In this document: positions 3,294-50,300 of the stretch, in pieces
How positions within the stretch are numbered: position 1 is the first letter of the stretch
Layout of the letters: the number at the start of each line of letters is the position of its first letter
Assembly: GCA_020631905.1 (NCBI GenBank)
Contig: JACKGQ010000001.1
Location: forward strand, 229,854 to 293,853
Reading direction: 5' to 3'
Length of the DNA stretch: 64,000 bases
Source: Candidatus Nomurabacteria bacterium
Lineage (GTDB): Bacteria > Patescibacteriota > Saccharimonadia > Saccharimonadales > VXPC01
Translations under genes and position numbers: made by a program
Notes under the pieces: generated by a model
Told to the model about the DNA's origin: nothing
What the model saw: the letters and a program-made list of their open reading frames with translations, nothing else
The model's database searches: none

Positions 3294-3644
3294 AGAAAAG
3301 TAGTATATAGGCCGAAGGCCTTAGGGGCTAGTTTTAAGGAAAGCAAAGCATTAAATCTTTACTAATATTTTCAAGAAAGCAAAGCTTTCCATCTCACTCT
3401 TCTATTTTTGAAGAGACCAAAAACAGAAGCAAAAAAAGTCTTCCCAGCCACCCAAACATCCAGACTATCAAGCTTACAGCTCTTAAATCTGGTAACTTGC
3501 GGAACTTGCTGGCAAAGCCAGCTGCATACAGTCCTCGTTACCATACTTAAGAACTACAAGCTTGCTAATCTCGAGTTTGGGTGATGCTGGATATACAAGA
3601 CCGACAGACATCTAATATCCGAGTTCTAAGATCTATCTCATATC

Positions 3645-3680
3645 AATAAACGAGAAAACCCCGAGCCCCTGAGAGGGCTC
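3645..3680 (-). terminator. rho-independent terminator of G+C-rich ORF B1
   Basis: On the minus strand, stem GAGCCC-TCTCAG-GGGCTC is followed by GGGGTTTTCTCGTTT, directly after the stop at 3693. Confidence 0.55.
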
Positions 3681-3692
3681 TAGGGCTCTCGA

Positions 3693-4127
3693 TCAGAAGC
3701 TCGGGGTAGTTGCCCCAAGTCGACGTCGCTCGAAGCGTCGCCGTTTTCCATGTTGCGAGCCATGCATTTCGCAGGTGTGCTGCGGGTTGGCTTCTGTCAG
3801 CCAGTAGCAGAGCAGAAGCTGCAGGAACTCGCACGACCGTCGTGTCAGCAACTGCTCGGGGCAGTTACGATCCAGGCTGGTCACGTAGTAACCAAAGGAA
3901 TCTTGGTTAACCAGTAGCGAGTGATGAACTTCACCACTCAGATCGGCCAAAACCCGAAGGTCTGGTAGCTGGCAGTTGGAGTTCAGCCGGATGCGAAGGT
4001 AACCACCTGGCGGTGTATACTTGCCGGCGAGACTCACCGTCCGGTTGTCGAAGTGAATGGTAGGAGGTAGGTCGGTAGCAGACATGTCGAGCATTTGGAG
4101 CGACAGTCTGTTGAGGGTCGGGCTCAC
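3693..4127 (-). CDS. hypothetical protein, G+C-rich ORF (island B1)
   Basis: GTG start preceded by AAAGGA. 144 aa with a Cys-containing, Arg-rich C-terminus. Has its own promoter and terminator. No family recognised. Confidence 0.55.
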   Translation of the reverse strand: MSPTLNRLSLQMLDMSATDLPPTIHFDNRTVSLAGKYTPPGGYLRIRLNSNCQLPDLRVLADLSGEVHHSLLVNQDSFGYYVTSLDRNCPEQLLTRRSCEFLQLLLCYWLTEANPQHTCEMHGSQHGKRRRFERRRLGATTPSF

Positions 4128-4161
4128 TTGAGATCCTTTGTTGGCGTGTGGGACGAACGAC

Positions 4162-4190
4162 TATTATGCCAAATTTATTGATAATGTCAA
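4162..4190 (-). promoter_or_regulatory. sigma70-type promoter for ORF B1 (TTGACA-N16/17-CATAAT/ATAATA)
   Basis: Minus strand reads TTGACATTATCAATAAATTTGGCATAATA, in a short AT-rich gap between two G+C-rich ORFs. Confidence 0.55.
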
Positions 4191-4195
4191 CCCAT

Positions 4196-4227
4196 AAAAG
4201 CGGAAACCCCAGGCTACTTGCCTGGGG
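4196..4227 (-). terminator. rho-independent terminator after ORF B2 and its tRNA-like 3' element
   Basis: Minus strand: CCCCAGG-CAAGTAG-CCTGGGG followed by TTTCCGCTTTT. Confidence 0.6.
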
Positions 4228-4271
4228 CGTTGTAGTGCGGAGCGACGGCTCGACGCACAATTCAAAAGGAG

Positions 4272-4360
4272 AAGGTTCGAAGTGGGCGAACCCGGGTTTG
4301 AACCCGGACCGAGGAAACCTCGGTGTATTGGCGGTTAATCCGCCCACTACTCGAAACCTT
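4272..4360 (-). other. tRNA-like structured element (acceptor-like stem plus T-arm-like hairpin plus extra hairpin); not a canonical tRNA
   Basis: Minus strand starts 3 nt after the ORF B2 stop. Acceptor-like pair GTGGGCG/CGCCCAC is extended to about 17 bp. Hairpins are CCGAGG-TTT-CCTCGG and TCCGGG-TTCAAA-CCCGGG (T-loop-like). No D-arm or 7-nt anticodon loop can be drawn. Confidence 0.4.
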
Positions 4361-4363
4361 GAG

Positions 4364-4807
4364 CTACTCCGACATCGCGGGCGGCAGCCCCGCCTCGTGG
4401 GTGGCGTACCACTCACGGTGGGGATCGATCACCCCAGGCTCTTCAGAGTTGTTGCCATCTTCGATCAGGCCGAGACCCTTCGGCCAAGTCCTGATCAACC
4501 CCACGATGGTTGCGATGACCTCCTGCTCCTTCCGGGTTGAGGCGTCCGTGACGGGCGCATCGTGGGCTCCGAGCAGGATTTTCACCGTTGCGGTGTCCGG
4601 GTAGTAGACCCAGTCGTCAGCGCTGATGCCGGCGACTTGACCCATGTCGGCAATCAGCTGGTCGAGGCCGGCAGATGTCAACGGCTGGAAGAACTCGATC
4701 TCGCCGAAGTGACTGTTGGGATGGACTGCAATTCGCAACCAACCACAGCCGTCACCAAGCGTGGTGAGCTCCCTATCCGAACCCTCAGTGAAGGTTGAAG
4801 GTTTCAA
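4364..4807 (-). CDS. hypothetical protein, G+C-rich ORF (island B2)
   Basis: TTG start 5 nt after AGGAGA. 147 aa with balanced composition. Has its own promoter. No family recognised. Confidence 0.6.
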   Translation of the reverse strand: MKPSTFTEGSDRELTTLGDGCGWLRIAVHPNSHFGEIEFFQPLTSAGLDQLIADMGQVAGISADDWVYYPDTATVKILLGAHDAPVTDASTRKEQEVIATIVGLIRTWPKGLGLIEDGNNSEEPGVIDPHREWYATHEAGLPPAMSE

Positions 4808-4851
4808 GGTGTCTCCTTGTAAAGGGCCCGGACTTGTTTCCGAGCTTGGGC

Positions 4852-4880
4852 ATCTTACACAATCTATATCACATTGTCAA
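4852..4880 (-). promoter_or_regulatory. sigma70-type promoter for ORF B2 (TTGACA-N17-TAAGAT)
   Basis: Minus strand: TTGACA (4875-4880), 17-nt spacer, TAAGAT (4852-4857). Confidence 0.6.
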
Positions 4881-5506: not shown

Positions 5507-5773
5507 TTAAGAGAGCGAGCAGACAGGTCGACCGTCGTTATCTATAGCTGTATCTGCGAAAGAAGCCATGCTTGGCTCAAACTGAAAAGTATAAGACTGG
5601 CCTTCTTCGTCAACACAGGTAACTCTAACTAGACCGTCATTATCGTGGTGGAATGTTGGTTCACCAATCACCCTACCGTTTAAAGAAACTGTACGCTGCA
5701 GAACTAACGCGACCACCGCATCTATACCTGCAACACGTGGGTCGCAAAGTTCATGCATTGACAAACTACTCAT
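5507..5773 (-). CDS. hypothetical protein (88 aa)
   Basis: ATG-initiated ORF filling the gap between flanking genes, with ordinary composition. No family recognised. Confidence 0.45.
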   Translation of the reverse strand: MSSLSMHELCDPRVAGIDAVVALVLQRTVSLNGRVIGEPTFHHDNDGLVRVTCVDEEGQSYTFQFEPSMASFADTAIDNDGRPVCSLS

Positions 5774-33639: not shown

Positions 33640-34200
33640 ATGAATGAAGACATAGCATTTAAAGGAAGATTGTTTGAGATTGTACATCTTCTGCAGGCCG
33701 ACGGCCGAGTGTTCGAGGTTGCTAGGCGAGCACCTGGGGTGCGATTAATTGTTGCAAATCAAAATGAAAAGAAGATTTTACTTACTAAAGAATTCAGGCG
33801 TGAGCTAGATGCCTGGGATTATCGTTTGCCTGGCGGCAAAGTATTCGATTCACTCGACGAATACGAAGCTTTTCGACAATCTGGTAAAGACATTCTAGTG
33901 GCTGCCAGATCCAAAGCTACTCAAGAAGGTGCCGAAGAAGCTGGGGTTGATATAAAAGACGTCGAGCTATTTGAAAAGTCTACTCTTGGGGCAACTGTAG
34001 AATGGGATTTGTTTGTGTTCGAAGTCACCAACTGGCAAGCACATAAAGATGGCCAAAAATTGGAAGATGGCGAGAACATCGAAGCCGACAACTGGTTCAG
34101 TTACGGGCAAGCTAAACAAATGATTTTAAATGGTGAAATGCAAGAACACCGCATCGCTTTGCTACTACTACAATGGCTGGAGAAACAAAATGACCGATAA
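33640..34200 (+). CDS. NUDIX hydrolase
   Basis: The Nudix-box region GGKVF...ATQEGAEEAGV is degenerate but recognisable. 186 aa. Confidence 0.75.
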   Translation: MNEDIAFKGRLFEIVHLLQADGRVFEVARRAPGVRLIVANQNEKKILLTKEFRRELDAWDYRLPGGKVFDSLDEYEAFRQSGKDILVAARSKATQEGAEEAGVDIKDVELFEKSTLGATVEWDLFVFEVTNWQAHKDGQKLEDGENIEADNWFSYGQAKQMILNGEMQEHRIALLLLQWLEKQNDR

Positions 34201-34606
34201 AGATTTTCTAAGAATTGCTGTAGAAGAGTCAAAGAAAGTTCCTGCGCCTTACGGTTTCGGTGCTGTAATAGTTAAAGATGGCGAATTAATTATTGCAGAG
34301 CATAATCATGTAGCCGAGTATAACGACCCTTCGGCACACGCTGAAGTAACTGCTATTCGAGCAGCATGTTCAAAGCTTGGTGATTGGCACATCCATGGCA
34401 CGACAATGTATACGTCCCACGAACCATGCATGATGTGTTTATGTTGTGCTGCCTGGGCACAGATTGACAGGATTGTGTTCGCAACTCGTGCTGATGAGCT
34501 TACGGAAGATATGTATGAGTTCAGAAACGCCGAATTCAAGAATATTGCTAGCAAGCTACAGAGACAAATTGAGGTTCAGTATTTGCCTTTAAGGATCGAG
34601 GAATAA
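34190..34606 (+). CDS. CMP/dCMP-type zinc deaminase (guanine deaminase/TadA-like)
   Basis: HAEVTAI and PCMMCLCCAAWA (HxE...PCxxC). ATG 34190 overlaps the upstream stop. Confidence 0.85.
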   Translation: MTDKDFLRIAVEESKKVPAPYGFGAVIVKDGELIIAEHNHVAEYNDPSAHAEVTAIRAACSKLGDWHIHGTTMYTSHEPCMMCLCCAAWAQIDRIVFATRADELTEDMYEFRNAEFKNIASKLQRQIEVQYLPLRIEE

Positions 34607-35250: not shown

Positions 35251-35660
35251 TGACTAGCTTGATTCATAAAGTTGCTGGGATAATAATAAAAGACAGGCAG
35301 TTACTGGTGGTGCGTGAGTTTGGTAAGAGCGTGTTTTTTAGCCCGGGTGGTAAGATTGAGCCCGGCGAAAGCAAAGAGCGGGTGCTAATGCGCGAGCTGG
35401 CCGAAGAACTCGGAATTCAGACAACCCCCAAAGATTTCAGGCCTTTTGGCCATTACAAGGCCGAAGCTGCCGGGAAGGTAGGCGCGATGCTCGAGATGGA
35501 TGTACTGATGGTTACGAACTACGAAGGCCAAATAAGGGCTGGTAGCGAGATCGAAGAGCTAGCTTGGGTCGACAGCCAGAACCAAGCCGGCTTAGAGCTT
35601 GGCAGTATATTTGAACATCATGTTATTCCCGAGCTAAAATCGAAAAACTTAATTGACTAG
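35244..35660 (+). CDS. NUDIX hydrolase (MutT-like)
   Basis: Nudix box GGKIEPGESKERVLMRELAEELGI. Confidence 0.85.
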   Translation: MVMTSLIHKVAGIIIKDRQLLVVREFGKSVFFSPGGKIEPGESKERVLMRELAEELGIQTTPKDFRPFGHYKAEAAGKVGAMLEMDVLMVTNYEGQIRAGSEIEELAWVDSQNQAGLELGSIFEHHVIPELKSKNLID

Positions 35661-37201
35661 CGTCTAGATAAGTCGAGCAGATCAGACCAATACAAGATTG
35701 AGCCACTGGCTAATAGTCGGTTAACTTCGGGTATTAGATCGTTGTCATTAAAATAGCCACTCCAAACTGCTATCGGGCTGTGGTTGACTGCTATCAGACC
35801 ATCTTCTATATGTACTGAGTCGAACGAACTAGTTTCAAGCAGACTTGGGTTACCTGCAGCGATTAGTGTAATCTTGCCTGGATCGTATGGTACGAGTCGT
35901 AGGTCGTACAGCTCACCAGATATGACCGAGTAAGAGCCAATAAAAGCTATTTGATCAAAAGCATTGCGTATTACGAGCGGGTTTTGGATGGTCGTAAAAG
36001 CGTATGCACCTTCGTATGCTTCGTCTATCTGATAAAAGTAAACAGCTGTAACATTATTTAAGTACTCAATTGACCCCTCGCCATTTAACACCGACTCGAT
36101 ACTCGATTGTGCTGCCTCTTGTGGACTTGGCTCTTGCTCTAGGTAGTTAAGCGTATTAAAGTTTGAATTCATGTATTTGTTGTAGTAGCTGGCGGGGCAG
36201 ATTCGGTAATAATTGGTTAAGTCGACCAAGCCAGACTTGAAGCCAGGGTATTTAGCCTCGATATCTTCGATAATCGCATATTGCTTGAGCTGGTAAACCG
36301 AGCCCCAATCTACATCTCCCGGTAATACCATGCCTCGAGAAGTGAGCATTTCCGTAACAAGCGTAGCCCAATCTTCATGCTCACTTTGAGCACCGTAGGC
36401 GACCGCAAACTGACGAAACTCTGAAGGTTCGATTAACCATGGAGCTGGATCTAGATAGCGATCATTCAGGTAGCTGATTTGTCTCTGACTAGACTGCAGC
36501 TCGGCAATAAGTTGATGGTATCTACTGCCTGAGTTGCATAATTCGGTCTGAAGCGCATGAGCAATCTCGTGTACGAATGTGTCTGGCCCGGCCGATTCGT
36601 CAACCGCAATATCTTGGATGCCAATGTTGAACGCAGATTTGTTGAAAGTCACTCCAGCTGCGTCGCCCAAATTTGGGTTATCCGGGATAGAGTCAATCGA
36701 GGCAAAGACCGAAATGCGCAGATCGAGTGAGCGGACTAATTCGCTTGGGTAAAATCCTGGCCCGAGAATCGGTCCACTCGGGTCTGGATAAGGCAGGTTA
36801 TCGTACAGTGGCTGATAGATGGGATCATTCAGGCCGGCTGGGGCGTCTTCGGGAGTGTATACCGGGTTATATTCAACCCCACGTGCAACCAATGTTTGCT
36901 GGATGTAATCGGCTTGTAGACCGGTGTCAAAATACGCGTTTCTCAGTTTTAAGGATTCAAGTATTTGTTCAAACATGCCGCCAACAGGTATCGGCGTTTT
37001 CTCGATACATACTTGGCTGCCTGGACTCGTTTGGACGGTCGACTCGACGGATGGTTGCTGGTTTGAGTCTGCCATACTTGCAGCTGTATCGGTCGAGCTG
37101 TAGTCACCATCTAAGGCTAGTCCAAACATGCTCGATAACACTAAACCAAAGGCTACAAAGCGGCGGCGCACAAAGGGCTGCTCGTATCTTGTTATTTTCA
37201 T
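35657..37201 (-). CDS. secreted or membrane-anchored putative zinc metallopeptidase (HExxH)
   Basis: N-terminal hydrophobic anchor and the FVHEIAHALQ motif. No family otherwise recognised. Confidence 0.5.
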   Translation of the reverse strand: MKITRYEQPFVRRRFVAFGLVLSSMFGLALDGDYSSTDTAASMADSNQQPSVESTVQTSPGSQVCIEKTPIPVGGMFEQILESLKLRNAYFDTGLQADYIQQTLVARGVEYNPVYTPEDAPAGLNDPIYQPLYDNLPYPDPSGPILGPGFYPSELVRSLDLRISVFASIDSIPDNPNLGDAAGVTFNKSAFNIGIQDIAVDESAGPDTFVHEIAHALQTELCNSGSRYHQLIAELQSSQRQISYLNDRYLDPAPWLIEPSEFRQFAVAYGAQSEHEDWATLVTEMLTSRGMVLPGDVDWGSVYQLKQYAIIEDIEAKYPGFKSGLVDLTNYYRICPASYYNKYMNSNFNTLNYLEQEPSPQEAAQSSIESVLNGEGSIEYLNNVTAVYFYQIDEAYEGAYAFTTIQNPLVIRNAFDQIAFIGSYSVISGELYDLRLVPYDPGKITLIAAGNPSLLETSSFDSVHIEDGLIAVNHSPIAVWSGYFNDNDLIPEVNRLLASGSILYWSDLLDLSRR

Positions 37202-39044: not shown

Positions 39045-39281
39045 TTAGCGGATTTTGACGTAGAGTTTACGAGTTAGTTGGCAACGAGTTTTAACCTCGT
39101 AGTAGCGCATTCGCAAGATGCTAGCAGTGGCAGCGTTGGGCATATAAACTGTTAACATGTTTGGCTGAATCCGGATTTCTGGAGTTAGCTCGAACTCTTG
39201 GCGAATAAATTCTCGGAGTGCGGTTACTTCTGTTGGCTCCTCCATGTTCTTCTGCAATAAAAGATCTTTAAGCGAATCCAT
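39045..39281 (-). CDS. hypothetical protein (78 aa, possibly DUF721/DciA-like)
   Basis: Small basic protein. The family assignment is a weak recollection only. Confidence 0.4.
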   Translation of the reverse strand: MDSLKDLLLQKNMEEPTEVTALREFIRQEFELTPEIRIQPNMLTVYMPNAATASILRMRYYEVKTRCQLTRKLYVKIR

Positions 39282-39298
39282 GAGCTAAGTATATAGTA

Positions 39299-39327
39299 TT
39301 GAAGAAATCGTCTAAGTATTGTAGAAT
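39299..39327 (+). promoter_or_regulatory. promoter TTGAAG-N17-TAGAAT upstream of G+C-rich ORF C
   Basis: TTGAAG at 39299-39304, 17-nt spacer, TAGAAT at 39322-39327. Confidence 0.55.
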
Positions 39328-39373
39328 ATGCATCTGGACAATCCGGTCCAATTACCCAAAAAGGGGTACGTAC

Positions 39374-39901
39374 ATGAACGAAGATTTCCATTCTGATATC
39401 GGTGGGGTTCGTGACCAGCTCAACAGCTTGTTACGGGAAATCAGGGAGCTTCAGGCAAGAGCTGCCCAGTTCCAGTCTGATCTCGATCGCCGTCGTTCCG
39501 TGCAGCTCGACCCTGGCATCACCTCTGTTGACGCACAACTCGCGGAGTTCAGGTTGAAGATCATGTTCCTCCGCACAGAGTTGCTCGATGTCGCTGAGGG
39601 GGGCATCACCGAGGCCTATGCCAGCAGAGTCGACGAGAGCATGCCCGGTGTCGTGGAGTTCTACAACGAGTTCTTCGAAGCTCTCCAGACCTACGTCTTC
39701 GAGCCCGACTGGTTCCCGTTGAGGTTGGTCTTGGTGCCGAAGCCATCGAGCTGGCACACGCCCTCGGTGTCTCACACCCAACTGGTAGACAGTTTCAAGC
39801 AGGAACTCGCTGAGTTGTTCGCCAAGCACGGTGTGACCAGTGGACGCGTCGACGTCCGTAGAGGTCAGATCGTGGCCTTCACCCTGGATCCCCAGCGGTA
39901 G
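39374..39901 (+). CDS. hypothetical protein, G+C-rich ORF (island C)
   Basis: ATG lies 8 nt after AAAAAGGGG. 175 aa with a coiled-coil-like N-terminus and G/C-rich third codon positions. The antisense ORF 39431-39973 is a GC artefact. Confidence 0.6.
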   Translation: MNEDFHSDIGGVRDQLNSLLREIRELQARAAQFQSDLDRRRSVQLDPGITSVDAQLAEFRLKIMFLRTELLDVAEGGITEAYASRVDESMPGVVEFYNEFFEALQTYVFEPDWFPLRLVLVPKPSSWHTPSVSHTQLVDSFKQELAELFAKHGVTSGRVDVRRGQIVAFTLDPQR

Positions 39902-39980
39902 ATGGCTAGAAGCGGATCGGATTACCACTCCGGGGTGTGGAGCGTTAAGTTCCACCCCGGGGTGCCGATTCATGAAAACG

Positions 39981-40004
39981 ACACTCCGACAGGAGTGTTT
40001 TTTG
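39981..40004 (+). terminator. rho-independent terminator
   Basis: ACACTCC-GACA-GGAGTGT followed by TTTTTT. Confidence 0.75.
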
Positions 40005-40049
40005 CTACAAGAACTATGAACAGAAGTCTCCGGACTATATACTAGCTGT

Positions 40050-40913
40050 ATGCCGGAGTTACCAGAAGTCGAGACGGTTGTTTTGGGTTTGCGCAGCCTT
40101 TTACCTGGACATAAGTTTGTGCGGGTCGAGTTTGACTGGTCAAAAAGTTTCCCGAATACGCAAGCCGATGTCGAGAAGTTTTTGTTTGGTAGCGATGTAA
40201 TCGATGTCCGACGTCGCGGTAAGGCAATTTTAATCGATCTTAGCAGTGATTATACATTGGTAATTCATCTCAAGATGACCGGTCAACTTGTATATCGTGG
40301 TGAGTCCGATTTCGGCGGCGGTCACCCAAGCGACAGCCTAGTCGACAAACTGCCCGACAAGTCGACTCGGGTTGAGTTTGAGTTCGAAAACGGTCATAAA
40401 TTATTCTTTAATGATCAGCGAAAGTTTGGCTGGGTCCGGCTGTTACCAACTCTCGAGGTTGGCGAAATAAATTTTATGAAAAATCTTGGCCCAGACGCGC
40501 TAACAGTCACTGACACAGAGTTTGTAAAAAGATTTAAATCTCGCCACAAAAGTATTAAAGCCTGTTTACTCGATCAGACTATCTTGGCGGGTTGCGGTAA
40601 TATCTATGCCGATGAGGCTTTGTGGGCTAGCCAAATACACCCAAAAACTACCGCCAGTAAACTGACAGACAAGCAGCTTGCCGAGCTGCATAGATGCCTC
40701 CAACAAGTCCTAAAACTCAGCATTAGCTTGGGTGGCAGTAGTAGCAAAAACTATGTTAACGCTCAAGGCGAACGCGGCAGTTATTTAACTTTTGCGAACG
40801 CTTACGGGCGTGATGGTTTGCCATGCAATCGTTGTGGGCAGGAGATGACTAAAATGGTGGTCGCTGGTCGAGGTACACACGTCTGCCAGGGCTGTCAGCG
40901 AGTCAAAAAATGA
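40050..40913 (+). CDS. mutM: formamidopyrimidine-DNA glycosylase
   Basis: N-terminal MPELPEVE, H2TH region and C-terminal zinc finger CNRCG...CQGC. Confidence 0.95.
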   Translation: MPELPEVETVVLGLRSLLPGHKFVRVEFDWSKSFPNTQADVEKFLFGSDVIDVRRRGKAILIDLSSDYTLVIHLKMTGQLVYRGESDFGGGHPSDSLVDKLPDKSTRVEFEFENGHKLFFNDQRKFGWVRLLPTLEVGEINFMKNLGPDALTVTDTEFVKRFKSRHKSIKACLLDQTILAGCGNIYADEALWASQIHPKTTASKLTDKQLAELHRCLQQVLKLSISLGGSSSKNYVNAQGERGSYLTFANAYGRDGLPCNRCGQEMTKMVVAGRGTHVCQGCQRVKK

Positions 40914-44047: not shown

Positions 44048-44881
44048 ATGGAATTAGACAGAATCTTACTAATTGATAAACCTCAAGGTTGGACATCGTT
44101 CGATGTTGTCGCCAAAATTCGTGGCTCTATGCAAAATAAGTACAACTTGGCTTTGCGGGATACACCCGAGCTTTGTGGTTGCGAAGAGTGCAAGGCAGAA
44201 GTGAAGCGCAGAGCAAGCCTTACATCAGTAAGGCGCGCGAGCACTGGAACTTCTAACGCGGCAATCACGCACCAGACGACTGGGAATGATCAGATTCATT
44301 CTGATTATCCAAGGCGTCGACACAAAATTCGGGTGGGTCACACAGGTACATTAGACCCTATGGCTACGGGTTTGCTGGTGATTGTGACTGGCAAGAACAC
44401 AAAAATGGTCTCCGAGATGATCAAGCACGACAAAACCTACGAGGTCGAACTAACTTTGGGTTCGATAAGTGACACAGGTGATGCCGAAGGTAAGCTGACC
44501 AATCTAAATAAGCTTGTACCAGATGCACTGGCGGTAGACGAAGCAGTCTTAAGTTTTGTTGGCGAAATTATGCAGACACCGCCCGCTTATTCGGCGATAA
44601 AGATTAACGGCAAGCGGGCTTATCAGCTAGCCCGAGAGGGCAAAGAAGTAAGGTTAGAGCCACGCAAAGTGAACATTTACTCAATCTTAGACATAAAGTA
44701 CGAGTATCCAGTAGTAAGTTTTGTGGCCGAGGTGAGTAGTGGCACCTATATTCGCTCACTGGTGCAAGATATCGGCCAGATGCTTGGCACAGGTGCTTAC
44801 ATGAGTGGCCTCAGGCGCACCAAAGTCGGCGAATATGATATTGATGACGCCACAGAACCTGAATCGCTTGAGCTTGCATAA
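44048..44881 (+). CDS. truB: tRNA pseudouridine(55) synthase TruB
   Basis: LLIDKPQGWTSFDVV and GHTGTLDPMATG (catalytic Asp). Contains an insertion of about 67 aa between these motifs. Confidence 0.9.
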   Translation: MELDRILLIDKPQGWTSFDVVAKIRGSMQNKYNLALRDTPELCGCEECKAEVKRRASLTSVRRASTGTSNAAITHQTTGNDQIHSDYPRRRHKIRVGHTGTLDPMATGLLVIVTGKNTKMVSEMIKHDKTYEVELTLGSISDTGDAEGKLTNLNKLVPDALAVDEAVLSFVGEIMQTPPAYSAIKINGKRAYQLAREGKEVRLEPRKVNIYSILDIKYEYPVVSFVAEVSSGTYIRSLVQDIGQMLGTGAYMSGLRRTKVGEYDIDDATEPESLELA

Positions 44882-44910
44882 GCCAGAGTATGGAGTATAA
44901 GTAACGGCTT

Positions 44911-45810
44911 ATGAGTGCAAGAAGCCGTCATACACCTACTTTGAGTGGCAGACTAGATATGGTCTTCCCGAATGACCCGATGTCCGAGGCCCGTAGCAGT
45001 GGGCGAATGGTGGTTCAGGAATTTACCTGGGGCGATGCATTGAGTAAAGTTGTCGAACAACTAGATATTAGCGTAGCAGATGCCCTAAAAATGCTCGGCA
45101 TATCTTTGGAGACCGTCCAGAACAGTGGCGTGATCAAGCTGACCGATGGGGCATATGCCGAATATCAGGAAGACCGGGTCGATGAACTGGCTAGAACAAT
45201 CGCTACGCAGATACAGCCAGAAATCGAAAGAATTGGGTTGCGATTCGAGGAGCTTAAGGCTGGTTGGCGTGTTGAGGAGGATCGTCTGGATAGCTACCAA
45301 AAACTAGCTGAGATGCTCCTAAATTATGCTAGTGAGACAGATAATCTGCATGAAGACCTTAACTCTCAAGCAAGACATTTTCCACCTCGCACAGCTCTAA
45401 GATATGCAATTTATGAACTCAGGGATTTTAATGACGATCTTCAGGCTAGACTCCGGGATATGGCCGGTCGCTTAGAAAAAAGTGCACACCTACTATCGTT
45501 AGCCGATCTGGCGACAGGTGTACTTGAAGCCGGTCTCTCAAGTTCTTACGGACAACTAATTACCTCTAGGGCTCTAGCTTCGACCATAGAAGCTATTTTG
45601 CAGGGGCATCGTTACGACGTTTCGCGCGTCTTGGTTGATCGACTTCTGGTTGGTGACACTCAGCTAGATGTTTTTAGGAGACAACTACGAACCGAAGCAT
45701 ATGAGTACTGCTTGGCCGAAGCTCGAGACAGGTGGCAGCAGGTTGCCGAAGTTGTCTTTCTAGCCGAAGATCCATACTACTTAAGAGTTAAAAACGGTCA
45801 AGAACAATAA
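44911..45810 (+). CDS. hypothetical protein (299 aa)
   Basis: Long helical-looking ORF. No motif recognised. Confidence 0.55.
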   Translation: MSARSRHTPTLSGRLDMVFPNDPMSEARSSGRMVVQEFTWGDALSKVVEQLDISVADALKMLGISLETVQNSGVIKLTDGAYAEYQEDRVDELARTIATQIQPEIERIGLRFEELKAGWRVEEDRLDSYQKLAEMLLNYASETDNLHEDLNSQARHFPPRTALRYAIYELRDFNDDLQARLRDMAGRLEKSAHLLSLADLATGVLEAGLSSSYGQLITSRALASTIEAILQGHRYDVSRVLVDRLLVGDTQLDVFRRQLRTEAYEYCLAEARDRWQQVAEVVFLAEDPYYLRVKNGQEQ

Positions 45811-45816
45811 AATAAC

Positions 45817-45845
45817 TTGCATAATATTTACACATATGTTATAAT
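45817..45845 (+). promoter_or_regulatory. promoter TTGCAT-N17-TATAAT driving the G+C-rich non-coding locus
   Basis: TTGCAT at 45817-45822, exact 17-nt spacer, consensus TATAAT at 45840-45845. Confidence 0.65.
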
Positions 45846-45852
45846 GATGTAA

Positions 45853-46410
45853 TCAACCTGAGGTGAGGTGTTTAACCCCTTGAGTTGAACATTTACAATC
45901 AGGTACTAGAAAAAAAATCGCGGTGGCGAGGCAGACGACGGTGTTGGATTACCGTATGGCGCCTTAGCCCCAGTTGGCATGTTGCAAGCAGCAATTCTGC
46001 AGCGTCATCTGACGTGCACCACATTTGTTGGCCGGCAAAGATTAGCCGGACTTGCCAAACTTCTCCGAGGTGCGCGTCGCGTGCTTTGGGGTGCGTGCGG
46101 GCTCACCCGCAACCGAATGGGCGATGCCGGATCCGCTGGCCGCCGAATAGACCCTAGTGAAAGGGGTAAGCTGTGGTCCCACCGGGCCTCTAGGCCGTAC
46201 CGGTCCAAGATGCTACCACCCGAAAGGGGGAGCTATATCAGACTGGTACGGCTATCTTCAGTCAAAATCTGGTGCTCCGCTACAGGCTTGCGTCCACTAC
46301 GTGGCCACCTGGGGCGGAGCACCGAGACCCAATGAAAACCGCCGCCCCGACCTCGTGCAATCGGCCGCAAGGCAGCATGGGGTCGGGGCACAGGTTATCT
46401 AGTACCTGAA
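45853..46410 (+). ncRNA. candidate large structured ncRNA, class unassigned
   Basis: Consensus promoter upstream. An 11-bp closing inverted repeat (45899-45909 / 46399-46409) encloses a core of about 61% G+C. The core has perfect 9-13 bp helices and GNRA loops on the + strand. Only R/W/C-rich overlapping ORFs are present. Confidence 0.55.
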
Positions 46411-46457
46411 TTTCCACTAAATCTTAAAAGAGTTAAGGTTTGATGGAGATTAAATAC

Positions 46458-46485
46458 TTGCCACATCTGTTATTTGTGGTACAAT
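46458..46485 (+). promoter_or_regulatory. rpsO promoter TTGCCA-N16-TACAAT with TG extension
   Basis: TTGCCA at 46458-46463 and TGgTACAAT at 46477-46485. Confidence 0.6.
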
Positions 46486-46554
46486 TTAGGCTAACGCCAT
46501 CACTCTTATCTGAATAATTAGAAGAGTACAAAGTAATAAAGGAGTAATACCTGC

Positions 46555-46821
46555 ATGATTTCAGCTGATAAGAAAGCTAAAACCATCAAAGCCCACGCCC
46601 GCAAAGATAGCGACGTCGGCTCACCAGAAGTTCAGGCAGCTGTGCTGACAGAACGCATTAAAGAAGTTACTGAACATCTTAAAGTTAATAAAAAAGATAA
46701 TATGGCTCGCCGTGGTCTGCTTCAGATGGTCGGCAAGCGACGTCGATTATTGAGCTACTTGGCCCGCAAAGATGCTGCTGGCTACCAAGCTTTGATTAAA
46801 AAGCTCGGCATTCGCAAGTAG
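46555..46821 (+). CDS. rpsO: 30S ribosomal protein S15
   Basis: 88 aa. [48 protein letters not shown]. Confidence 0.97.
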
Positions 46822-49110: not shown

Positions 49111-49156
49111 AGCTGCCAAATAGCATCCATTTTGGGCACTAGAAAGACGTGAGAGT

Positions 49157-49711
49157 ATGGCAAAAAATTTACACGAAACAGGTTACGAGCATCGGTTTGT
49201 GGCATTTGATTTCAGTGGCTTTCCTTCTGTGATTGAGGTCGATGGTATAACCCTAAATTTCTTTAATCTCGAAGATGCCGAACGACTAGATGAGATAACG
49301 TCTGATGACACCGTCCAGAGGTACATTCCTTGGGCAGCTGAAGATAAGCGTGCATATATTGAAAGGACGACTACGGCCAGGCAGAACAGAGGCCCCCGAT
49401 ATGCCATAAGGCTAGGAGAAATTCTGATTGGCCATTTTGCCATTTTTCCTAGTCCTGACGTACAAGGTGTTATTGAACTAGGCTACGTTATTGATAAGGC
49501 TTACAGGGGCCAAGGAATCATACCTAAGGTTTTGCTTGAATGTGAGTCAATAATTAGAGAGCAAATGCCTAAAGCAAGAATAGGCTTAGCAATAAACGAT
49601 GAAAACGAGGCGAGTATACGTGTTGCCCAAAAAGCAGGTTTCGAACGTACCGATACTATCAGTGATGGAGATAGGTTGTATATAAAAGTAGGGGATCAGA
49701 TTGGTCAATAA
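49157..49711 (+). CDS. GNAT family N-acetyltransferase (RimJ/RimL-like)
   Basis: YRGQGI acetyl-CoA-binding-loop pattern. 184 aa. Confidence 0.8.
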   Translation: MAKNLHETGYEHRFVAFDFSGFPSVIEVDGITLNFFNLEDAERLDEITSDDTVQRYIPWAAEDKRAYIERTTTARQNRGPRYAIRLGEILIGHFAIFPSPDVQGVIELGYVIDKAYRGQGIIPKVLLECESIIREQMPKARIGLAINDENEASIRVAQKAGFERTDTISDGDRLYIKVGDQIGQ

Positions 49712-50300
49712 GCAACAGCAACTAGATCAGATTGCGGCAGATATTATCAAAAATAATGTCTGCCATGAGCTAGCGGCTGGGGCAATTCAGTTGGTGATGG
49801 GAGTGGGTGACCCAAATGCCGATATTGTTTTGATAGGTGAAGCCCCGGGCAAGAAAGAAGATGAGCAAGGCGAACCATTTGTCGGTGCCTCTGGTAAATT
49901 TTTGAACGAAATGTTAGAATCTATACACCTAAACCGTTCTCAAATATACATAACGAACATCGTCAAGTACCGGCCACCGAACAATCGCGACCCGTCACCA
50001 ATTGAGAAAAAGGAGTTTACACCATATCTAGAACGCCAACTGGAAGTTATAAAGCCAAAAATTGTTGTAACTTTAGGTCGGCATTCTGGGGAATATTTTT
50101 TACCAGATTTAAAAATTAGCCGAGATCATGGCCAAGCTTTCCGGATGTCCTGGAAACCAAGCGATGGTAGCGAAGGATTAAATCTAATAGTTTTACCTCT
50201 GTACCATCCGGCAGCCGCCCTTTATAACGGTGGTATGCGCCAAACCTTGTTATATGACTTTGCCAAGATCCCAATCATTATTAAGAAAATGAATAAATAA
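49701..50300 (+). CDS. uracil-DNA glycosylase, family 4-like
   Basis: GEAPGKKED, FVGASGKFL and LYHPAAAL motifs. Only one Cys in the whole protein. Confidence 0.8.
   Translation: MVNKQQQLDQIAADIIKNNVCHELAAGAIQLVMGVGDPNADIVLIGEAPGKKEDEQGEPFVGASGKFLNEMLESIHLNRSQIYITNIVKYRPPNNRDPSPIEKKEFTPYLERQLEVIKPKIVVTLGRHSGEYFLPDLKISRDHGQAFRMSWKPSDGSEGLNLIVLPLYHPAAALYNGGMRQTLLYDFAKIPIIIKKMNK

Follow-up and report, generated by a model that had tools for sequence, protein, structure and literature searches.

A phage moron is an independent transcription unit which has become inserted between conserved phage genes (PMC3594210). Island C, the subject of this analysis, is in several ways moron-like, although it is found instead in a bacterial chromosome. 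It is a G+C-rich cassette holding a single orphan open reading frame (ORF), and it resides between s78, a conserved gene for a protein of 78 amino acids, and mutM (also fpg), the gene for formamidopyrimidine-DNA glycosylase. The DNA analysed, here described as the window, is a stretch of 64,000 nucleotides from a Candidatus Nomurabacteria bacterium of the Saccharimonadales (assembly GCA_020631905.1, contig JACKGQ010000001.1, positions 229,854 to 293,853 of the forward strand). The window belongs to a Candidatus Saccharibacteria chromosome. We consider it probable that in island C a foreign protein-coding gene, gained recently, forms an independent transcription unit within the approximately 70-bp spacer in which the back-to-back promoters of s78 and mutM are found.

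As with a moron, island C consists of one ORF along with a predicted promoter and a predicted factor-independent terminator, a likeness that is seen at the level of sequence and in which the promoter match is at chance frequency. The G+C content of the ORF departs as well from that of its neighbours, i.e., 0.576 vs. 0.44 to 0.47 overall, and 0.74 vs. 0.47 at third codon positions (GC3). The genes between which it lies are adjacent in relatives, being 69 to 76 bp apart in the closest two and 23 to 129 bp apart in 43 of 66 related loci, and the product presumably is accessory. Unlike a moron, however, island C is located among s78, mutM, holA, rpsT, and the gene for a HAD hydrolase, that is, within a bacterial chromosome rather than in a phage or prophage, and searches with island C of PHROGs, of phages, and of viral contigs gave no match. 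Not being found in a phage, island C therefore is not a member of the moron class.

ORFan islets, as seen in bacterial pangenomes, are single, lineage-specific genes that have been acquired horizontally at variable chromosomal slots. Bacterial ORFans usually are A+T-richer than the genomes in which they are found. Island C is like an ORFan islet in being a short orphan of atypical composition, absent from relatives, lacking mobility genes, and located at a recurrently variable intergenic site. It is unlike one in being G+C-richer (a difference in GC3 of +0.27), whereas the occupants of the same slot in relatives fit the A+T-richer norm (-0.09). Island C nevertheless is best filed as an ORFan islet resulting from horizontal transfer, one that is unusual only in being G+C-richer than its genome. 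Most likely it is a product of ordinary horizontal gene transfer and not a new kind of element.

Integron cassettes, too, possess a single ORF which is followed by an imperfect inverted repeat. From that perspective, and with several similar G+C-rich units present in the 64-kb window, island C might be viewed as the cassette of a dedicated site-specific system, whether integron-like or instead a small integrative element. This is extremely improbable, however, as the hairpin lacks paired attC core sites (RYYYAAC/GTTRRRY) at its ends, the ORF has its own promoter-like site along with a terminator possessing a T run, and there is no array, with the neighbours being housekeeping genes that are collinear with those of relatives. 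Furthermore, island C is without an integrase, a tRNA, or direct repeats at its flanks, and no DNA is common to island C and either of two other G+C-rich units of the window, islands A and B. An attC reading of the hairpin was considered and rejected: a single GTTRRRY match (39944-39950) falls in the apical loop, and there is no 5' partner on the plus strand. Scanning of the unusual neighbouring ORFs with Pfam gave no recombinase domain, nor was an integrase found nearby. Island C is unlike a classical genomic island or integrative element also in that no tRNA is found near it and its only flanking repeat is inverted, consisting of native -10 boxes. That 10-bp inverted repeat was considered as the terminal inverted repeats of a mobile element, and this was rejected as well, the arms being two native, divergent -10 boxes.

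The cassette's physical reality can be judged from independent assemblies. Three sequencing runs, each assembled independently, gave contigs that match the window with 100% identity, and both junctions are covered: one contig (L002) spans from the HAD gene through s78 and the ORF to mutM, while two others (L001 and L003) span the ORF and mutM, extending towards holA. The same protein is present in two NCBI assemblies (MCA9348790.1 and MCB9821192.1, on a 770-kb contig). As the source is a metagenome-assembled genome (MAG), and as an abrupt change in G+C content is a classic sign of a chimera, it may be asked whether island C is an assembly chimera or instead a contaminating fragment. With identity of 100% over both the left and right junctions in three assemblies from separate runs, with the protein held by two NCBI assemblies, and with flanks that fit the two halves of an ancestral spacer, that explanation is next to impossible to credit.

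That ancestral spacer is seen in the closest relatives found in the protein database, the loci L164 (MutM 77% identical) and L165 (73%); scanning of GTDB species representatives and JGI metagenomes gave no MutM identity above 67%. The distance from the s78 start to that of mutM is 69 bp in L164 and 76 bp in L165, with no cassette present. One half of this spacer aligns with the left flank in the window (39282 to approximately 39330), and the other half with the right flank (approximately 40005 to 40049). Absent from the closest relatives is the island C block itself (approximately 39.33 to 40.00 kb), i.e., an insert of about 0.7 kb with one ORF, around which the window otherwise is collinear with L164. 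Nor was the cassette found in any of approximately 165 related loci. A preliminary description of this DNA, which was made from its letters alone, had proposed an isolated, compositionally foreign, monocistronic orphan cassette inserted before mutM; this interpretation is largely right, with the insertion being borne out by the close spacing of s78 and mutM in these relatives.

What the preliminary description missed is that the gap between s78 and mutM is a recurrent site of gene turnover across Saccharibacteria. Homologues of s78 are found upstream of mutM in 66 related loci, and among these Saccharibacteria loci, in each of which s78 is on the minus strand, gap length is bimodal: 43 gaps are empty (23 to 129 bp) and 23 are occupied (508 to 1362 bp). 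Occupants typically are one plus-strand ORF of 145 to 318 amino acids, encoding an acidic protein, and they are mutually unrelated except for two pairs. Island C is on the plus strand between s78 and mutM, as are the 23 occupants in relatives. The GC3 of those occupants less that of their own mutM is -0.09 +/- 0.06, reaching at most +0.03, vs. +0.27 for island C; among the slots compared, only the island C occupant is compositionally foreign. Comparison of slot occupants with island C by tblastn and blastp gave nothing, and by hhalign a probability of no more than 1.6%. An 88-amino-acid protein from elsewhere in the window (5507-5773, minus strand) resembles the slot occupant of one relative (L079, 5516-5977), with 28% identity over 78 amino acids and E of about 2e-4, and there may thus be small families, including some of the slot genes, whose members move from one variable site to another.

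The similarity in position, strand, and acidity, along with a broadly similar size, allows for a different reading, namely that island C is not foreign at all but rather a positional orthologue of the 23 slot genes, one that is resident here and has evolved so fast as to be no longer recognisable. Occupants in relatives indeed are already unrecognisable to each other. Under that reading a native composition nonetheless would be expected, as is seen in relatives, rather than the +0.27 found here. The slot, moreover, is empty in the two nearest relatives, and island C has its own terminator and stops 148 bp short of mutM, vs. 4 to 44 bp for most occupants. Residency at this position thus appears very unlikely.

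Evidence for recent foreign acquisition is found in the composition of the ORF. Against its overall G+C content of 0.576, that of the window as a whole is 0.468. By codon position the ORF is 0.61/0.38/0.74 (GC1/2/3), with neighbouring genes having a GC3 of about 0.47, and the claim that the ORF is visibly G+C-richer than its neighbours accordingly stands once GC3 and codon statistics are run. Among the 57 window ORFs of at least 120 amino acids, GC3 exceeds 0.62 in three, these being found in islands A, B, and C only, and the other 54 range from 0.35 to 0.60. Relative synonymous codon usage (RSCU) in island C correlates at 0.07 with that of host genes, while usage of C- and G-ending codons is common to island A, to B147 of island B, and to island C (r of about 0.7). 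The island C protein has 15 arginines to 4 lysines, i.e., R/(R+K) of 0.79 vs. a host median of 0.46.

That this composition is that of a gene, rather than of G+C-rich DNA which happens to be open, can be seen from its codon-position periodicity. The difference between GC3 and GC2 is 0.36 in the ORF. The maximum over dinucleotide shuffles of the G+C-rich segment is 0.23 (n = 2000), so that none of the 2000 reaches the observed value, and codon phase is unchanged along the entire 528 nucleotides. As periodicity is beyond that of all shuffles and phase is constant, it is therefore the plus strand that is coding. A full-length antisense ORF, as had been pointed out previously, is indeed present (39431-39973, minus strand, 180 codons), but with GC1/2/3 of 0.75/0.41/0.60, i.e., GC1 highest, it is the mirror of the plus frame and thus a shadow. 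As a true gene it was ruled out by codon-position composition, and it has no Pfam match. The plus-strand ORF (39374-39901, 175 amino acids) is a protein-coding gene, with a strong hairpin and a terminator found 3' to it. The evidence for coding here is frame-specific composition, which is present, with an orphan offering no homologues in which frame-specific conservation might be seen.

It is that last circumstance, along with a marginal ORF length, which lends something to the idea of a chance ORF within a G+C-rich non-coding insert, as of a structured RNA. Of the shuffles, 4.4% contain an open frame of 175 codons or more, and the window does possess a G+C-rich, structured non-coding region (45.9 to 46.4 kb, described below as region D). 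The RNA of the ORF, however, is not unusually structured (z = -0.9, vs. -7.7 for region D), no Rfam match was found at E <= 1, a Shine-Dalgarno sequence is present and correctly spaced, and neither the GC3 to GC2 difference, unmatched in shuffles, nor the constancy of phase over 528 nucleotides is as would be expected from chance. A non-coding origin is highly improbable.

The protein which is encoded is acidic (isoelectric point of 5.0) and without cysteine. No relative of the 175-amino-acid protein was found among approximately 15 billion proteins overall: there was none in 5.8 billion clusters and none that was real by HMMER over 1.84 billion representatives. Searches of Pfam, NCBIfam, PHROGs, and PADLOC gave no family at E <= 0.1, and the best match to PDB sequences, with E = 2.5, was not significant. 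By tblastn nothing was found in phages or in IMG/VR, with the best plasmid match having E = 0.3, and the cassette in its entirety had no blastn match in either phages or plasmids. The sole non-self match (P0002) is to a protein made up of plant Rx_N domains, 25 of them in tandem, each of which scores 27.7 bits over residues 9 to 52. It was rejected, its E-value being inflated by the repeats; the Pfam Rx_N profile does not match the orphan.

Single-sequence modelling with AlphaFold2 (AF2) of the full protein gives helices at residues 3 to 43 and 49 to 83, with a predicted local distance difference test (pLDDT) value of about 70 to 80 for the helices and of 55 for the whole, and with the C-terminal part poorly defined. 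The C-terminal 92 amino acids, modelled alone, form an alpha-beta-beta-alpha-beta-beta arrangement (pLDDT of 61). Foldseek searches of PDB and of BFVD with these low-confidence models gave generic helical hairpins only (best E of 0.098 and 0.07, respectively). The product thus may tentatively be described, from these models, as a soluble acidic protein in which a helical hairpin, at the N-terminus, is followed by a small domain of alpha/beta type. To the coiled-coil-like N-terminus that had been suggested for it correspond the two long predicted helices, and the suggestion that it has no recognisable family fits with the searches. Most likely the protein is a dispensable, lineage-specific accessory factor rather than a housekeeping enzyme. 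That it is a binding protein involved in conflict with host or phage is a guess, and a rather doubtful one.

All of the features of the cassette that had been reported previously, i.e., promoter-like site, ORF, antisense ORF, hairpin, and terminator, were recovered at their coordinates. The predicted promoter (39299-39327, plus strand) is sigma-70-like, TTGAAG-N17-TAGAAT, as a match to consensus only. The sequence around it is A+T-rich and can be aligned with the ancestral spacer between the genes, and its -10 part is inside a 12-nucleotide direct repeat (39295-39306 and 39315-39326). There follows a leader of 46 nucleotides (39328-39373), of unremarkable structure (fold z = -0.49), to the ATG at 39374, with a Shine-Dalgarno-like AAAGGGG at 39360-39366, seven nucleotides before that ATG. 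Beyond the ORF, in the 3' untranslated region and still within the block of foreign composition, is a G+C-rich imperfect hairpin (39914-39971). This hairpin had been noted before, but its stem is longer than first described. The intrinsic terminator (39980-40004) has an 8-bp stem (39980-39999; ACACTCC-GACA-GGAGTGT) and then a T run. Folding of the 3' structure as a whole (39896-40012) gives -53.9 kcal/mol, with z = -5.4 and with none of 200 shuffles equally stable. A 47-codon ORF (39902-40045, plus strand) is also present, with its ATG overlapping the stop of the orphan ORF (TAGATG). It continues through the terminator and both of the hairpins and ends within the promoter of mutM. Most likely it is not a gene.

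Given this layout, transcription would begin from the sigma-70-like promoter at 39299-39327, translation would make use of the Shine-Dalgarno sequence found seven nucleotides before the ATG, and the long G+C-rich hairpin together with the intrinsic terminator would end the transcript, thereby insulating mutM. How such a unit could have arrived is suggested by experiment, as natural competence has been demonstrated in Saccharibacteria, along with the insertion of cassettes into their intergenic sites (PMC10633639). Uptake by natural transformation, with insertion then being illegitimate or mediated by microhomology, therefore is a plausible route, and would seem to be the most plausible one. 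Island C is like the cassettes that were engineered in that work in consisting of promoter, foreign ORF, and terminator within an intergenic site, and also in the proposed route of uptake. It is unlike them in that those cassettes had homology arms of approximately 0.5 to 1 kb and a chosen site, whereas island C is natural and without evidence of arms (PMC10633639).

The donor in any case would be a high-GC organism, that is, an actinobacterial host, the mobile elements or phages of such a host, or instead a high-GC Saccharibacterium. Under the first of these possibilities DNA would have been released in the course of epibiotic parasitism, from an actinobacterial host or from its phage or mobile element, and then taken up by the competence system. 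Consistent with this are the GC3 of 0.74 to 0.85 and the C- and G-ending codons of island C, island A, and B147, the usage of arginine over lysine, and also the growth of cultivated, naturally competent Saccharibacteria on Actinobacteria (PMC10633639). Composition alone nevertheless cannot name a phylum, and no actinobacterial or phage homologue was found. This origin is a real possibility, though one to which we would give somewhat less than even weight.

Alternatively, the donor may have been a G+C-richer Saccharibacterium, with the slot gene exchanged between lineages. Related loci do reach 55 to 59% G+C, five of these (L005, L025, L060, L072, and L117) have a G+C-rich orphan-like gene of their own in the slot, and the codon usage of island A correlates at 0.7 to 0.8 with the genes of high-GC loci. 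The same correlation is just 0.1 to 0.5 for island C, however. None of the slot proteins is detectably related to that of island C, and flank identity (55 to 60% for MutM) is too low for homologous exchange. Such an exchange seems rather unlikely. Of these sources we favour, though without proof, an actinobacterial host or the phages of such a host.

Several points weigh against our view of island C as a recently acquired foreign gene with its own transcription unit. The donor cannot be named, with no homologue found in collections of proteins, phages, plasmids, or viral contigs. The nearest relative with an empty slot has only 77% MutM identity, and 'insertion here' vs. 'loss there' are not formally separable. 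The timing is inferred solely from the unameliorated composition. As for the transcription unit, the promoter match is at chance frequency, with one found vs. 1.4 expected, and as for the product, the low confidence of the structure models (pLDDT of 55 and 61) makes any description of domains tentative.

The genes flanking island C belong to an order that is widely conserved in Saccharibacteria, i.e., MFS (minus strand), HAD, s78 (minus strand), mutM, holA, and rpsT (minus strand). To the left is s78 (39045-39281, minus strand), which in most relatives lies beside mutM and is divergent from it. Identity of s78 is 79% with the copy in L164, and ranges from 25 to 79% across Saccharibacteria. Searches with s78 of Pfam, NCBIfam, PHROGs, and PADLOC gave no match; it is a conserved small protein without assigned function, found beside mutM across Saccharibacteria. 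To the right is mutM (40050-40913, plus strand), with matches to Pfam Fapy_DNA_glyco, H2TH, and zf-FPG_IleRS.

Just upstream of each of these genes is a putative native -10 element, and the two elements together form a perfect, 10-bp inverted repeat (39288-39297 and 40034-40043, 100% complementary) which flanks the block. The left arm is the putative element of s78 (39288-39297, minus strand; TATACT, six nucleotides from the ATG), and the right arm is that of mutM (40034-40043, plus strand; TATACT at 40038-40043, six nucleotides before the ATG at 40050), with the promoter role of both being presumed from motif and position. The counterpart of the latter in L164 is TAGACT, seven nucleotides ahead of the mutM ATG. 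It can be observed that TATATACT is found six nucleotides before the ATG of both s78 and mutM, without a Shine-Dalgarno sequence (39282-39298 and 40030-40049; L164 7932-8000). In many relatives, too, the start codons of the two genes are merely 23 to 60 bp apart. This suggests back-to-back leaderless transcription of the conserved divergent pair. Probably both flanking genes have kept their own, probably leaderless promoters, with that of mutM being found downstream of the cassette terminator.

Islands A and B lie some distance away in the window, and island C had been described as sharing their architecture. Island A (1362-2280) has an ORF (1552-2280, GC3 of 0.85) that is preceded by a consensus promoter (TTGTAA-N17-TATAAT, 1362-1390) and a leader of approximately 160 nucleotides. 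This ORF, too, is a complete orphan, as searching gave nothing beyond one cluster, in which two assemblies contribute a near-identical copy each. Island B (3600-4880), however, is not a single-gene unit. It has two G+C-rich ORFs on the minus strand (4364-4807 and 3693-4127), with a tRNA-like fragment between them, and both ORFs have strong promoters of their own (at 4880-4852 and, with 11 of 12 matches, at 4190-4163). That fragment (4284-4355, minus strand) consists of a T-arm, GGTTCAAACCCGG, along with the 3' strand of an acceptor. ARAGORN does not call it, and its sole Rfam match is a weak, tRNA-like one (mascRNA, E = 0.76). Possibly it is what is left of a former integration site. The proteins of islands A and C show a weak BLASTP match (E = 0.018, pairwise), with an hhalign probability of 1.1%, a similarity which is unsupported, and island C has no DNA in common with other parts of the window. 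That the three islands were acquired independently, as had been proposed, is plausible though unproven. Their common codon usage (A, B147, C) nonetheless fits one kind of donor as well as it does several.

Relative to L164 the window has five extra segments, of which C is G+C-rich throughout, while the fourth segment carries region D. Region D is approximately 510 nucleotides with G+C content of about 0.6, found in the interval 45811-46554 between a 299-amino-acid orphan (44911-45810) and rpsO (at 46555). It is without coding periodicity, folds at -250 kcal/mol (z = -7.7), and has a promoter-like sequence (TTGCAT-N17-TATAAT, 45818-45846) and a closing 12-bp stem (45899-45910 and 46399-46410). 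Neither Rfam (at E <= 1) nor phages gave a match to it, and the region is absent from the closest relative, the truB-rpsO spacer of which is 144 bp. Region D is a candidate large structured non-coding RNA, and possibly is more interesting than island C. Further segments specific to the window vs. L164 are 34189-34605, 35657-37201 (minus strand), 44852-45810, and 49111-49757, and window-specific segments hold ORFs of 514, 299, and 184 amino acids that are of native composition, with no Pfam domain found in the first two. As judged from these comparisons of sequence, gene turnover between conserved housekeeping genes is frequent in this lineage.

Saccharibacteria have tiny genomes and are host dependent, and it is for this reason that the routes by which they gain genes are of real interest. 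Island C is a junction-verified case of a single foreign gene present, as its own transcription unit, between housekeeping promoters. For the present it adds one to the number of orphan genes, and its main use is in marking a variable slot and in offering a candidate for studies of expression or knock-out. Were the donor an actinobacterial host, however, then island C would document gene flow from host to epibiont through competence. A bolder view is that the s78/mutM spacer, along with similar spacers elsewhere in the window, is a preferred site of gene capture in naturally competent Saccharibacteria, and that the high-GC orphans of islands A, B, and C, for which no relative is found among approximately 15 billion proteins, are host-derived genes (actinobacterial or actinophage) or otherwise unsampled ones, recruited as lineage-specific factors for epibiont-host or epibiont-phage conflict. 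Though this is unlikely, if true it would mean that a reduced genome of the candidate phyla radiation (CPR) can innovate within its chromosome in the manner of morons.

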